A stretch of 64,000 nt of DNA from assembly GCF_050920415.1 (NCBI RefSeq), contig NZ_CP169310.1. One strand, written 5' to 3'. A program made the position numbers. The DNA comes from Escherichia coli. GTDB taxonomy: Bacteria; Pseudomonadota; Gammaproteobacteria; Enterobacterales; Enterobacteriaceae. This document shows, piece by piece, positions 15,001 to 24,000 of this stretch. Numbering within the stretch: position 1 is the stretch's first letter; each line of letters starts with the position of its first letter.

Positions 15001-18000
15001 TTTCACACCATCGGGTATAGCGCAGCCGGGATTATTTGATGAAATCCAGCCCCGTAAAAAAAGTGAAAAGTTAATGAAAACACTCGATGAACTGAACCAG
15101 TCGGGAAAAGGGAAAATGTGGTTTGCGGGGCGAGGAACCGCCCCTGAATGGCAAATGAAACGGGAAATGTTGAGTTGTCAACGCCAAGATTATTGGCCGT
15201 TTTTCGCCATTTTTAATGTCCGCTATTGGTCATTAATGTTGTCCGCTTGCCGCCATTTCATCATCACTGATTGGCGTGGCGTTTTTTGCCAGCACTCCCG
15301 CTTTGCGTTTTTCCTTTAACCGGTAGCTTTCTCCTTTGATGTTCAGTGTGGTTGAGTGGTGTAGCAGTCGATCCAGGATTGCCGTTGCCAGCACGTTATC
15401 GCCGAACATCTCTCCCCAGTCGGCGAACCCTTTATTTGACGTCAGCACGATGCTCGCTTTTTCATATCGACGGTTCAGCAACCGGAAGAACAGACTGGCT
15501 TCCTCGCGGGTCATCGGCAGATAGCCTATCTCATCCAGTATCAGTACCCGGGCATAACCAAGCTGCTGTAGCTGTTTTTCCAGCCGGTTTTCCTGTTTTG
15601 CCTTCATGAGTGTGGCGATCAGCTTATCCAGTGGCATGAACAGCACCCGATGACCAGCGTCCGCCGCTTTTACCCCGAGAGCGACTGCCAGGTGCGTTTT
15701 ACCCACACCAGGCGGACCCAGCAGGATCACGTTCTCGCTACGCTCCACGAACGCCAGCCCGGCCAGCTCACGGACGACCTTACGATCGATACCTGGCTGG
15801 AAGCCGAAGTCGAACTGCTCCAGCGTTTTGACCCACGGGAAGCGGGCCTGTTTCAGCCGGGACTCCATACTGCGCTGATGCCTCCCGTTCCATTCCTGCT
15901 GCAACGCCATGCACAGGAACTCGCGGTAGTTCAGTTCTTTTTTGGCCGCCTGCTCCAGCAGGCTTTCAACGTGGTAGCCCAGATGTTCCATTTTAAGACG
16001 ACCCAGCAGTGTCTCCAGTTCATGCATCACAACAGCTCCTCATAGGCACTCAACGGCCTGTGTTCCACCTGACTGACCTGCTGCCAGAGTGGGGCGTGAT
16101 GCTCCGGCACGGTCTGCCAGCCGTATACAGCCGAACAGAGACGGTGCGATGCTACCTGTTGCTCATTACTGTAGATCCGCAGTTCATCATCCAGCGAGAT
16201 CCGTATTGATACCGGCTGGCCACACAGGCTTTCCGGCACGCTGTAACGGTTCCCGCCAACCTCGATATAGCCATCCCAGGAGACATGACGGATATCGAAG
16301 TAGCTGGTATCGAAGTCCGTACCTGGCAGCGCCTGCAGATGCACCTGTTCCTGCGTGAAGCGCTGTTCCGGTGTCTGCCTGAACTGGCGAAGTTCCCGCC
16401 TGTCGGCAACGTCAGCCATCCACTGCTCCAGTAGCTGATTAACATGGGCGAAGCTGTCGAACCGGCGGTACCGGACGAAGAAGTTTTCCTTGAGGTATTT
16501 CACCATCCGTTCCACCTTACCTTTGGTTCTGGCCCTTCGTGGACGGCAGGCCCGTGGCAGGAAGCCATAGTGATTGGCCAGCAGCAGGAACCCGGAGTTG
16601 AACACCACCTTCCCGTTGTTATTTTTCAGCACTGCGGCTTTCTGGTTATCGACCAGCACGGTTTTCACGCTGCCGCCGAAGTAGCGAAAGGCGCGGACCA
16701 GTGACTCATAGGTATGTTCAGCATCCTGCTTTGGTGCCGCGAAGACATGGAAGCGACGTGAGAACCCCAGCGTATTAACCGCGAAGTTAACCCTGCATCG
16801 TTGCCCGGCAACCTCAGCCTCAACTTCTCCCCAGTCATGCTGTAGCTGGTAACCGGGCTGAGTTTCGAAGCGAACCGTTTTCTTCGATGGCCGCATCTTA
16901 CGTTTGGGCTGGATGTAGTAACGCAACATGGAACGGCCACCGGTATAACCCATCGCTTTGATTTCCGCCAGGATGACCTCGCCGTTCCAGACATTCTCAG
17001 CCAGACGCATGTCGATATAGTCCATGAACGGCTTGAGTTTGGCCATTTTGTGGCGTGTTTTTCTGGCCGGAGGTTCCGGGTATTTCAGGTACCGTCTGAC
17101 AGTCCGCTCAGAGCAACCAACCTGAGTGGCAATATCAACAATATACGCACCTTGCTGGCGCATTTGCTTTATCATGTAAAAGTCCTCTCTGCTCAGCATG
17201 AGTGTTCCCTTTGTGGTGTAGGAACCTTAAGGAAACAACATGTTGGGTGGAGCGGACAATCCAAATGGTGAATTACTGTCTTATATCATTGGCGCTGACA
17301 GAGTCAGTGTTATACAACTAAATGGCGAGATATTCCCCTGGCCAGGCTGGGTTAGTTCAGTCATCTCCGAACATATTTTCAGCGTTTCTTCTGGTCTGGT
17401 CTTCACCGTCATTTCTCGCCAGGCTCTGCTCTGTAAGAGGAGCACTACAATCCACAGACGTATGGAGACCAGATTGTTTTTCCAGTAATTCAAGCAATTT
17501 CTTTTCAACCGAAAAAGCACCTGGTATTACGCTGGAAATCACCTTATTAATATCATCCAGAGTCGTATTTTCTGTCAGTAACTCCGATATCAGCAAAGGA
17601 AGACGTTTATCTATAGCTGCAAACGCCGCACCAGTAACTAACATCGCGCGCATGAAACGTCCCCGCTCCTTCAGTTTTTCATTTGCAATGAGCTCATCTG
17701 CTATCTTATCTCCTGTCCGTTCATCCGGGAAAAGTTCAAATGAGCAGCGTCTGGATTTATTTTCATCACTCATTAATCACACCACCTTTCATTTTTATCA
17801 TTCCCATGACTAAATCAAACTGCGGGGATGAGCTCAGATAAAAGCGCTTATCAGGAACCCTAGTCAGGTTCTTCACAGCCTCGGCCACAATTTCAGCCCC
17901 ACCACCAACACACATTACATGTGTATAGTCGGTGAAACGGCTGATGACATCATTAACTCGTTTAATAAGCAACTTCTGCCGTTCATTGATAACATTAATG

Positions 18001-21000: not shown

Positions 21001-24000
21001 TGGAGCAGGGCACTCACTTCCGGAGCCAGCAGATATTTCGGCAGTTCATCATGGACCATCGACATCTGGCGAAGTGCCAGAGCTGCCGGATAATCAATGA
21101 CAGCAGGAAGTTGTGGAGACTGTCCGGCAGAATACACTGCCGGTACCATGGCTGCAGACTGGCTGTGTATAACGGAGCCTGACATTTATATTCCCCAGAA
21201 CATCAGGTTAATGGCGTTTTTGATGTCATTTTCGCGGTGGCTGAGATTGTCAGCGCCAGTGATATAAGACGGTAATTCGCCATTTGGATTGTCCGCTCCA
21301 CCCAACATGTTGTTTCCTTAAGGTTCTCACACCAGAAAGGACATCAACATGCTGAGCAGAGAGGACTTTTACATGATAAAGCAAATGCGCCAGCAGGGCG
21401 CGTACATTGTCGATATTGCGACTCAGATTGGTTGCTCTGAACGGACGGTCAGACGCTACTTCAAATACCCTGAACCGCCAGCCAGAAAAACCCGCCACAA
21501 AATGGTTAAGCTGAAACCGTTTATGGATTACATCGACATGCGCCTGGCAGAGAATGTCTGGAATAGCGAGGTTATCTTCGCGGAGATTAAGGCAATGGGT
21601 TATACGGGCGGACGTTCCATGCTGCGTTACTACATCCAGCCCAAACGTAAAATGCGTCCGTCAAAAAGAACAGTTCGCTTCGAAACTCAGCCAGGATACC
21701 AGCTCCAGCACGACTGGGGCGAAGTTGAGGTGGAGGTTGCCGGCAACGGTGCAAAGTTAACTTTGCGGTTAATACGCTGGGGTTCTCCCGCCGCTTCCAT
21801 GTCTTCGCCGCACCAAAACAGGATGCTGAGCATACCTACGAATCACTGGTTCGCGCCTTCCGCTACTTCGGTGGTTGATCCTACCCTCGTAATATGGACA
21901 CTGCTCTAAGCGAGGTTCTGGTTTTCAAATTGTTCCGGACTGAGGCCGCCACACCAACTGTGCCGTCGCCAGCGATTGTAATCACATTCGATACAATTAA
22001 ACACTGTTGCCCGCATTATTTCCCGGCTGATAAAGTGTTCTCCGTGGAGACATTCCACTTTCAGCAAATGAAAGAAGCTTTCCACGCAGGCATTATCGTA
22101 GCAGCAGCCCTTTGCGCTCATACTGCCACGCAGATTATGCCGCTTCAGCAGCGCCTGATAATCTGCTGAACAGTACTGGCTTCCGCGGTCCGAGTGAACG
22201 ATAACGTTCCGGGGTCTCTTACGCCGCCACAGCGCCATCTGCAGGGCATCGCAGGCCAGTTGCGCCGTCATACGTGGCGACATGGACCAGCCAATAACGG
22301 CACGTGACCACAGGTCAATGACCACTGCCAGATACAGCCAGCCTTCATCTGTACGTAAGTACGTGATGTCTCCCGCCCACTTCTGGTTCGGACCACTGGC
22401 GTAAAAATCCTGCTCCAGCAGATTTTCTGACACAGGCAGGCCATGTGCGCGGTAACTGACCGGGCTGAACTTCCGGGAGGCCTTTGCCCTCAGCCCCTGA
22501 CGGCGCAGGCTTGCCGCCACAGTTTTTACGTTAAAGGGGTAACCCTGAGCACGCAGTTCATCCGTCAGGCGTGGTGCACCGTAACGCTGTTTTGACCGGG
22601 TAAAAGCCGCGAGGACAACGCTGTCGCAGTGCTGACGGAACTGCTGACGAGGGCTTATCCTTGTCCGCCGCTGACACCACGTATACCAGCCGCTGCGGGC
22701 CACCCGGAGCACGCGGCACATAGCCTTGATGCTGAACTCAGCCTGATGTTTTTCAATAAAGACATACTTCATTTCAGGCACTTCGCGAAGTATGTCGCGG
22801 CCTTTTGGAGGATAGCCAGCTCTTCATCCCGTTCTGCCAGCTGGCGTTTGAGACGTGCAATCTCGGTAGACATCTCCAGTTCACGTTCAGAAGACGTCTG
22901 CTGATTTTGCTGTTTACTGCGCCAGTTGTAGAGTTGTGATTCATACAGGCTGAGTTCACGGGCTGCGGCAGCAACACCGATGCGTTCAGCAAGCTTCAGG
23001 GCTTCACTGCGAAATTCAGGCGAATGCTGTTTACGTGTTTTTTTGCTGGTTGATACTGTTTTTGTCATGCGAGTCACCTCTGACTGAGAGTTTACTCACT
23101 TAGCCGCGTGTCCACTATTGCTGGGTAAGATCAGATAGATAATAGCTTTATCAAGTAATTTAATACTATCCATTCCATTAACTCTTTTTTAAAGATAAAA
23201 AACTGTACCATAGTTTGTTTAAATAACATAGATAATCGTTACAAGATTATTGCAGAAATCTATATCATATAAAAAGCCAATATATTATTTATATACTAAC
23301 GTTCACGTAAACTTTCATTAATAGTTTCATTTAATGGACTAAGAAGATAGCTGATAACACTACGCACTCCTGTTTTTATTTCTGCCATAACCGTCATTCC
23401 AGCTGTAACAGGAATTTTTTTTCTTTCTCCCTGTATATCATTCCGATCAATAGATATAATCACGTTAAATACAAGTCCTGTATCCGGAACAGAAACAGAA
23501 TCTGCAGTTATATTTTTTACTTTCCCCGTAAGGTAACCATAGCGTGTATATGGATATGCATCTACTTTAATAACTACCTCCTGTCCAGGTTGTATAAAAC
23601 CGATATCCTTGTTAAGTACAGACGCTGTAACTTCGAGAATGTCATTATCAGGGACAATCATCATCAGCGTTTCTGCTGTTGTGACAACTCCACCTTCTGT
23701 ATGTATATTTAACTCCTGAACAGTACCACTAACAGGAGCTTTAATAAAAGATGACGCTTTTCTCTGCCTGTTTTTTTCAAGCTCATGCTCCAGTAACACA
23801 ATGTTATCTGTTGATTTTCTGTGCTTCTCGATAATTTCACTTCTGAAAATATTCGTCTCCAGTGCCAGTTCTTCCCGCACAAGTTCTATTTCTTTTTCAA
23901 GTTGAGAAACCTGTGCAAGCCAGACTGCATGTTCATTTTTTGCCTGAATATACTTATTTTCCTGCTCCATAACTGAATGTTGAGAAACAGCTTTTTTATT

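Follow-up and report, generated by a model that had tools for sequence, protein, structure and literature searches.

The double partition (par) locus of plasmid pB171, which Ebersbach and Gerdes are said to have described in 2001, reportedly joins par1, a parMR system, to par2, a parAB system with the sites parC1 and parC2. In plasmid F, the rfsF site of the ResD/rfsF resolution system lies near oriV1, upstream of ccdA. The par2 layout of pB171 is parC1-parA-parB-parC2, with sites on both sides of the operon (PMC4270457), and sites on both sides of parAB are likewise described for the IncI1 plasmid pESBL, which has a type Ib ParAB-parS system (Poidevin et al. 2020, PMC7602700). Here we analyze a stretch of 64,000 nucleotides of an Escherichia coli virulence plasmid (contig NZ_CP169310.1), referred to as the window, in which a second parMR pair (parM2 and parR2), a gene for a small ParA with its putative partner and a remnant of resD lie between two elements of the IS21 family of insertion sequences (IS).

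We are quite confident that this region represents 4.8 kb left over from a maintenance block common to many enterobacterial plasmids and now flanked by mobile elements acquired at different times. The gene order of the block is umuC, parR-parM, parB-like gene and parA, resD and ccdB. The par genes are intact, the resolution function is lost, and the IS arms on either side do not form a functional pair. The region is an ordinary plasmid mosaic from known parts and holds no new invertible module; its features are collected in Table 1.

The maintenance block and its relatives

A near-identical sibling of the window was found in the E. coli plasmid pCFSAN004181P (NZ_CP012499.1, 223,952 bp, ground beef), of which 96% of the sequence was examined. 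It matches positions 1-15175 of the window at 100% and positions 17301-34270 at 99.994%. The sibling carries ehxCABD, two sta1 genes, one F-type tra region, IncFII repA and RepFIB; neither repE nor sopAB was seen in its examined sequence, despite its IncFIA typing.

Without IS sequences the block comprises 4839 bp. It is colinear throughout with pAA-EA11 of E. coli O104:H4 (96.5% identity) and, for the greater part, with IncI-gamma/K1 plasmids (96.7-97.2%), and the genes, their order and their orientation are the same in all of them. The 102-amino acid (aa) protein encoded next to ParA has one RefSeq accession (WP_000030204.1) in pAA-EA11 and in the sibling plasmid, which does not differ from the window at this place. 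The differences lie at the ends of the block. In the IncI-gamma/K1 and pAA-EA11 copies resD is intact, ccdAB is usually intact and umuDC is intact in some, whereas the window has a frameshifted resD and a truncated umuC, has lost ccdAB and has gained an ISEc62. Homology to the IncI-gamma/K1 plasmids, to pAA and to pMAR2 begins at 14280 with the truncated umuC', which is the left end of the backbone block and has lost its 5' end to IS91/IS3 debris.

The pB171-type locus was compared by means of the related EAF plasmid pMAR2 of E2348/69. In pMAR2 as in the window, a type II system and a small-ParA system occur next to each other, with the 3' end of umuC on one side and resD-ccdBA on the other. 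The flanking umuC' and resD-ccdBA sequences are 93-95% identical at the nucleotide level in the two plasmids. ParA has 214 aa in both, and repeats are found before parA and after parB in both. However, pMAR2 has parR-parM directed leftward and, after 228 bp, parA-parB directed rightward, a divergent arrangement, whereas all four genes of the window point in one direction. The proteins themselves share little: ParM is 36%, ParR 29% and ParA 20% identical, and the ParA partners (91 aa in pMAR2, 102 aa in the window) have no detectable similarity. Orthology to the pB171 locus was rejected on the basis of this comparison, in which the slot is the same and the proteins are unrelated. Since the flanks are conserved and the genes between them unrelated, one slot holds two unrelated double par cassettes, and such replacement of one cassette by another at the umuC-resD slot offers a neat case for the study of partition incompatibility.

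The type Ib ParAB-parS system of pESBL resembles the ParA part of the cassette in that a small Walker ParA comes before a ~100-aa partner without a recognizable domain, short repeats occur on both sides of the operon, and the operon adjoins a polymerase gene of the impB/umuC type. It differs in that its ParA is 24% identical to ours and in that no parMR is adjacent. The module of the window lacks the pESBL octamer GATAACAA, and orthology to pESBL ParAB was rejected on both the low ParA identity and the missing octamer. The literature on IncK/R64 gene names held nothing useful for this cassette.

Table 1. Position, strand and supporting evidence of the features in and around the maintenance block (window coordinates)
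Feature	Coordinates	Strand	Evidence or remarks
R1-type parM-parR, first type II system	4822-6137	+	F-like leading region; RefSeq annotation
IS3 end fragment, 140 bp	13983-14122	-	direct orientation relative to the complete IS3; with an IS91 fragment (~14140-14270) forms the left-hand IS debris
umuC' pseudogene, 3' part	14280-15175	+	RefSeq annotation of the identical sibling: frameshifted, N-terminus missing
ISEc62, complete, IS21 family, 2125 bp	15176-17300	-	istB 15233-16030, istA 16027-17199
Last 56 bp of umuC', split off by ISEc62	17301-17356	+	rebuilt empty site reads through to the stop codon and matches pAA
parR2, 138-aa ParR/StbB-family centromere-binding adaptor (predicted)	17357-17773	-	Pfam PF10784 (Plasmid_stab_B) 1.1e-27
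parM2, 326-aa actin-like partition ATPase (predicted)	17766-18746	-	Pfam StbA_N PF06406 8e-82, ParM_N PF21523 1e-71
Intergenic region between parB-like gene and parM2	18747-19158	-	GGATAT-like hexamers with 11-bp spacing at ~19101-19152, just past parB
ParB-like partner of ParA, 102 aa	19159-19467	-	N-terminal helix and ~50-aa C-terminal domain conserved, linker variable
parA, 214-aa small Walker-type ATPase	19554-20198	-	KGGVGKT at residues 10-16
Region upstream of parA	20199-20377	-	8 GGATAT-like hexamers, several 11-bp spaced, including the inverted pair CTTTCGGATATC / GATATCCGAAAG
resD pseudogene, F ResD-type tyrosine recombinase	20378-21185	-	one extra A at ~20785 (alignment to intact copies); RefSeq 'frameshifted'
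ccdB', last 62 bp of toxin gene	21186-21247	-	62/62 identical to F ccdB
IS21 proper, 628-bp stump: left end and 5' part of istA	21248-21875	+	99.0% identical to annotated IS21; RefSeq: istA incomplete
IS3 isoform, 1258 bp	21876-23133	-	orfA 22769-23077, orfB 21906-22781; abuts the IS21 stump

Two partition systems in one cassette

The four par genes of the block follow one another head to tail in the order parA, parB-like gene, parM2 and parR2, preceded by the resD remnant, and none of them is interrupted. Judged from their sequences, they would most probably still function as two independent partition systems, one formed by a type Ib-like ParA and its small partner, the other by a type II ParM/ParR pair with a promoter of its own. 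A promoter-like site was located at 18815-18844, ahead of parM2, by a promoter scan in which such sites were no commoner than in shuffled sequence. The parAB pair occurs without parMR in plasmids of K. grimontii and Y. enterocolitica, and since parAB is found alone in these Klebsiella and Yersinia plasmids the two systems are separable.

A second ParMR-like pair had been noted in the preliminary description of the window, and the profile searches place both proteins in partition families (Table 1). ParM2 matches the solved structure of R1 ParM in the PDB at 1e-103; it is 52% identical to ParM1 of the window (4822-5784), and ParR2 is 39% identical to the R1-type ParR (5787-6137). As in R1 parMRC, an actin-like ParM with both ParM Pfam domains is followed immediately by the gene for an adaptor of the Pfam family of R1 ParR/StbB, the start of parR2 overlapping the stop of parM2 by 8 bp. 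In contrast to R1, the search upstream of parM2 revealed no 11-bp iteron array of the R1 type. The assignment of the first pair to the R1 type is likewise borne out, ParM1 being 100% identical to the solved R1 ParM (PDB 1MWK). The window therefore carries three partition-type gene sets, as had been proposed: the R1-type parMR, the second parMR, and ParA with its small partner. Two or three partition systems are common in plasmids, with three reported in 745 PLSDB plasmids (PMC13245405); the supplementary tables of that paper have no entry for the plasmids considered here. In the sibling plasmid, a further ParA-family gene and a 120-aa open reading frame (ORF) occupy positions 61291-62285 of NZ_CP012499.1, outside the window and about 1.5 kb upstream of the RepFIB rep gene, and with this extra ParA locus there are at least four partition-type loci.

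ParA has the size and the deviant Walker A motif of the small type Ib proteins, which have about 200-220 aa and lack an N-terminal DNA-binding extension. It aligns with the full length of the NCBIfam ParA_partition profile (NF041546) at 8.8e-14, with a score of 51 bits that lies below the curated cut-off of 180 bits, and its Pfam matches to MipZ, AAA_31 and CbiA are all weak. The protein is at least 99% identical in 1,091 PLSDB plasmids.

The 102-aa protein is widely named 'molecular chaperone GroEL' in the databases. No sequence match to it was found in Pfam, NCBIfam or the PDB. It has 77 homologues, and all those with a species name come from Enterobacterales; their alignment reveals an invariant arginine in the conserved N-terminal helix. 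The AF2 model of the C-terminal part shows an extended segment and, after it, two helices, an arrangement that would suit a ribbon-helix-helix (RHH) fold. From its position and architecture this protein is almost certainly the partner of ParA, and the annotation of the 102-aa 'GroEL' entries can be corrected to ParA partner.

GGATAT-like hexamers are arrayed on both sides of parAB (Table 1). We counted 8 of them in the 196 bp before parA and 4 in the 126 bp after parB, against a window average of 0.58 per 100 bp; the motif had been derived from the very sequence used for the count. In a K. grimontii plasmid, whose ParA is 84% identical, phased repeats of a comparable kind lie on both sides of the parAB homologue. 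A terminator-like hairpin is found past the downstream hexamer array, at 19038-19058, by a terminator scan whose counts were not above those in shuffles. We infer that the hexamers may be the centromere, bound by the 102-aa partner, because they are enriched, because similar phased repeats occur in K. grimontii, and because a two-sided layout is known from pB171 and pESBL.

A more far-reaching proposal, which in our estimation falls a little short of an even chance, is that the tandem parA-parB-parM-parR cassette is a functional and so far uncharacterized double partition locus, an allelic alternative to the pB171 locus at the umuC-resD slot. Its centromere-binding protein would then come from an undescribed family, mislabelled 'GroEL', that reads the 11-bp-phased GGATAT-like hexamers. 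If this is true, swaps of whole cassettes between the conserved flanks would let related plasmids escape partition incompatibility.

Mobile elements and loss of the resolution system

The tyrosine recombinase next to the par genes had already been recognized as frameshifted, and the alignment to intact copies traces this to a single extra nucleotide. No intact ResD is encoded; the ORF is left in pieces of 135 aa and 123 aa. After correction of the frame, 248 of the 268 residues of the product (92.5%) are identical to F ResD, and the adjoining 62 bp are the end of F ccdB. In contrast to F, ccdA, most of ccdB and the upstream region are missing; when the F pifC-ccdA intergenic region and ccdAB were compared with the window, the last 62 bp of ccdB were the sole match. 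Multimer resolution is lost, because the recombinase gene is a pseudogene and just these 62 bp remain of F ccdAB and its upstream region, and the name of a resolution module, given to the region earlier, is no longer apt.

The left element had been taken for a complete IS21. Its coordinates, its completeness and its family are correct: it possesses istA and istB, ends of the TGT...ACA type (TGTCA...TGACA) and a target duplication of 4 bp, GAGT, at 15172-15175 and 17301-17304. Members of the IS21 family produce short target duplications of 4-8 bp. IstA (390 aa) matches the IS21 transposase profile NF033546 at 2.1e-83 with 280 bits (cut-off 160), and IstB (265 aa) matches NF038214 at 7.8e-89 with 297 bits (cut-off 200). 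The identity of the element, however, had to be revised. By the ISfinder convention, copies of the same IS share more than 95% nucleotide identity; the left element is 86.1% identical to annotated IS21 over 2132 bp and 98.4-100% identical to copies named ISEc62 by PGAP. It is ISEc62 and not IS21 itself.

The empty site of ISEc62 is present in the sibling NZ_CP012499.1, where the flanks are 100% identical. Since the two blocks that match the sibling overlap there by 4 bp, the element is bounded at 15176-17300 and flanked by GAGT on either side. No ISEc62 at this umuC' site is on record in PLSDB or in the RefSeq complete E. coli genomes, and the exact IstA sequence of the element is recorded on one contig only (226,095 bp). 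Its absence from the sibling and from all other records searched makes it a recent and private insertion. It lies 56 bp past the stop codon of parR2 and interrupts no par gene. The IS elements of the region are named ones, and annotations of its par and resD genes already exist in more than 1000 sequenced plasmids. The discovery value is small; in practice, ISEc62 at this site can serve to mark the lineage of this enterohaemolysin/STa plasmid.

The right element is IS21 proper, as the preliminary description had it: a stump corresponding to IS21 positions 1-631, inverted relative to ISEc62, its outer end turned towards the par block, and well above the 95% identity limit. The same description regarded it as split by IS3, which does not hold. 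The IS3 has no 3-bp target duplication (flanks GGT and GAT), and IS21 positions 632-2131 were found neither in the window nor in the examined sequence of the sibling, so that IS21 is truncated at IS3 and not split by it. Past IS3 follow a regulator pseudogene and then ehxD. The IS21 stump, the IS3 junction and the resD frameshift are all common to the window and pCFSAN004181P, and the IS21 fragment is common to the whole plasmid lineage. As the IS21/IS3 junction is present in the sibling, it predates the arrival of ISEc62. The two arms are thus different IS of different age, ISEc62 private and recent, the IS21 stump older and lineage-wide, and the bracketing of the par genes by inverted IS21 copies, previously seen as a unit, is coincidental.

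These observations suggest the following history. IS21 would have inserted into the 3' end of ccdB, or brought about a deletion up to it, in an ancestor of the enterohaemolysin plasmid lineage. IS3 may then have taken away all of IS21 beyond its first 628 bp, through an adjacent deletion or through recombination with another IS3, and the +1 frameshift would have arisen in resD. Much later, and in this plasmid only, ISEc62 would have entered the 3' end of the umuC pseudogene, downstream of parR, and generated its 4-bp duplication.

Several further observations concern the surroundings of the ISEc62 target. High-identity homology between the window and pMAR2 ends 4-6 bp from the insertion point (window 15169-15175; pMAR2 ~20158). 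The breakpoint of cassette exchange thus nearly coincides with the ISEc62 target, possibly by chance. Two IncI-gamma/K1 plasmids have IS21 proper inserted within the umuC 3' part, in opposite orientations, at the equivalents of window positions ~14950 and ~14565 (5001-7131 and 6001-8131 in the respective stretches). Together with ISEc62, this makes three independent insertions of IS21-family elements within about 600 bp of the umuC 3' part. In the Escherichia sp. plasmid NZ_AP025742.1 (150278-158910) the IS66-family element ISCro1 apparently interrupts the par block, and the listed features do not include ParM; elsewhere in this plasmid, a pemK/mazF toxin gene contains a 100% identical copy of ISEc62.

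Alternative readings and neighbouring genes

Besides the derivation of the hexamer motif from the sequence in which it was counted, several points weigh against the reading of the block as a remnant with working par genes. That either system of the cassette partitions the plasmid is a prediction. The par operons of pAA were regarded as incomplete in a paper on that plasmid (PMC11950199), probably owing to misannotated partner genes. A search for parC iterons upstream of parM2 (18747-19060) gave best repeat families that did not exceed the shuffled controls. No DNA-binding domain was found in the 102-aa protein by sequence, by fold search or with a fused-dimer model; of the ParA/RHH pair of the preliminary description, ParA stands by its KGGVGKT motif and its NCBIfam match below the cut-off, and the RHH label is not confirmed. 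Finally, features common to the sibling plasmids are the basis for ordering the older events, and this order carries no dates.

It had also been suggested that the inverted IS21-family arms are a functional pair that inverts the whole par/res module, be it by homologous recombination or by action of the transposase on the facing left ends. We consider this very improbable. The arms are indeed inverted over 628 bp, and their alignment (634 columns, 83 mismatches and 1 gap) contains identical runs of 48, 47 and 28 bp. RecA-dependent exchange in E. coli requires a minimum of about 25 bp of identity, a length that the two longest runs exceed. The left ends of the two arms have 3 differences in their first 60 bp, and the ISEc62 transposase might recognize both. 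However, diverged arms recombine poorly in mismatch-repair-proficient cells, and an overall identity of 86.8% would strongly suppress recombination; moreover, the right arm consists of one IS end and has no transposase. The arms are different IS, the left one unique to this plasmid, and do not delimit a composite or invertible segment. No inverted isomer was found in PLSDB or the RefSeq complete E. coli genomes, and the related plasmids examined all keep parR beside umuC, in the same orientation. Since both arms occur together in one known plasmid, inversion isomers cannot be checked in databases. Inversion is conceivable just through rare recombination between arms that are 87% identical, and nothing supports it.

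Another explanation for the extra par genes is a recent cointegrate of an F-type virulence plasmid with a plasmid of the IncI complex (I-gamma/K/B/O), the rest of the IncI partner having been deleted since. The block belongs to the backbone of IncI-gamma/K1 plasmids, and its close similarity to their copies would agree with such a fusion, as would the IS debris on both sides of the block and the MOBP relaxase match that MOB-suite reports for the sibling plasmid besides MOBF. Yet the IncF virulence plasmid pAA-EA11 is equally similar over the entire block, and IncF plasmids of the pMAR2 type use the same place, beside ccdAB, vapBC and RepFIB. The annotation of the window and of the examined sibling sequence lists no IncI replication, pil or tra genes, there is no second replicon or transfer region beside the block, and the divergence of 3% means that the event, if there was any, was not recent. 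We therefore regard the cointegrate as unlikely. An orphan 4.8-kb fragment of a shared backbone region, bounded by IS debris, fits better than a recent fusion; old IS-mediated shuffling explains the block as well as fusion does, and a cointegrate origin is not needed. What survives of the earlier idea of a cointegrate of at least two plasmid backbones is the mosaic: the second and third par sets lie in a backbone block that is found in other plasmid groups as well, which makes the plasmid a mosaic, and the fusion itself is not borne out.

 The enterohaemolysin operon ehxCABD (23296-30419) and the sta1 genes reside on one plasmid, a mix of Shiga toxin-producing E. coli (STEC) and enterotoxigenic E. 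coli (ETEC) types. The two sta1 heat-stable enterotoxin genes (32639-32857 and 51715-51933) are each situated in a direct repeat (31506-33682 and 50454-52758), about 19 kb apart. Just left of the IS debris, an intact gene with a YopT-type cysteine protease domain is located at 13288-13854, and a second copy of this gene region, 93-95% similar, is found near 47898-48572. Chromosome-like metabolic genes, a gentisate degradation cluster and fdnGHI (formate dehydrogenase-N), lie between IS fragments at window positions ~37790-43815 and ~55930-60526, as converted from the coordinates of the sibling.

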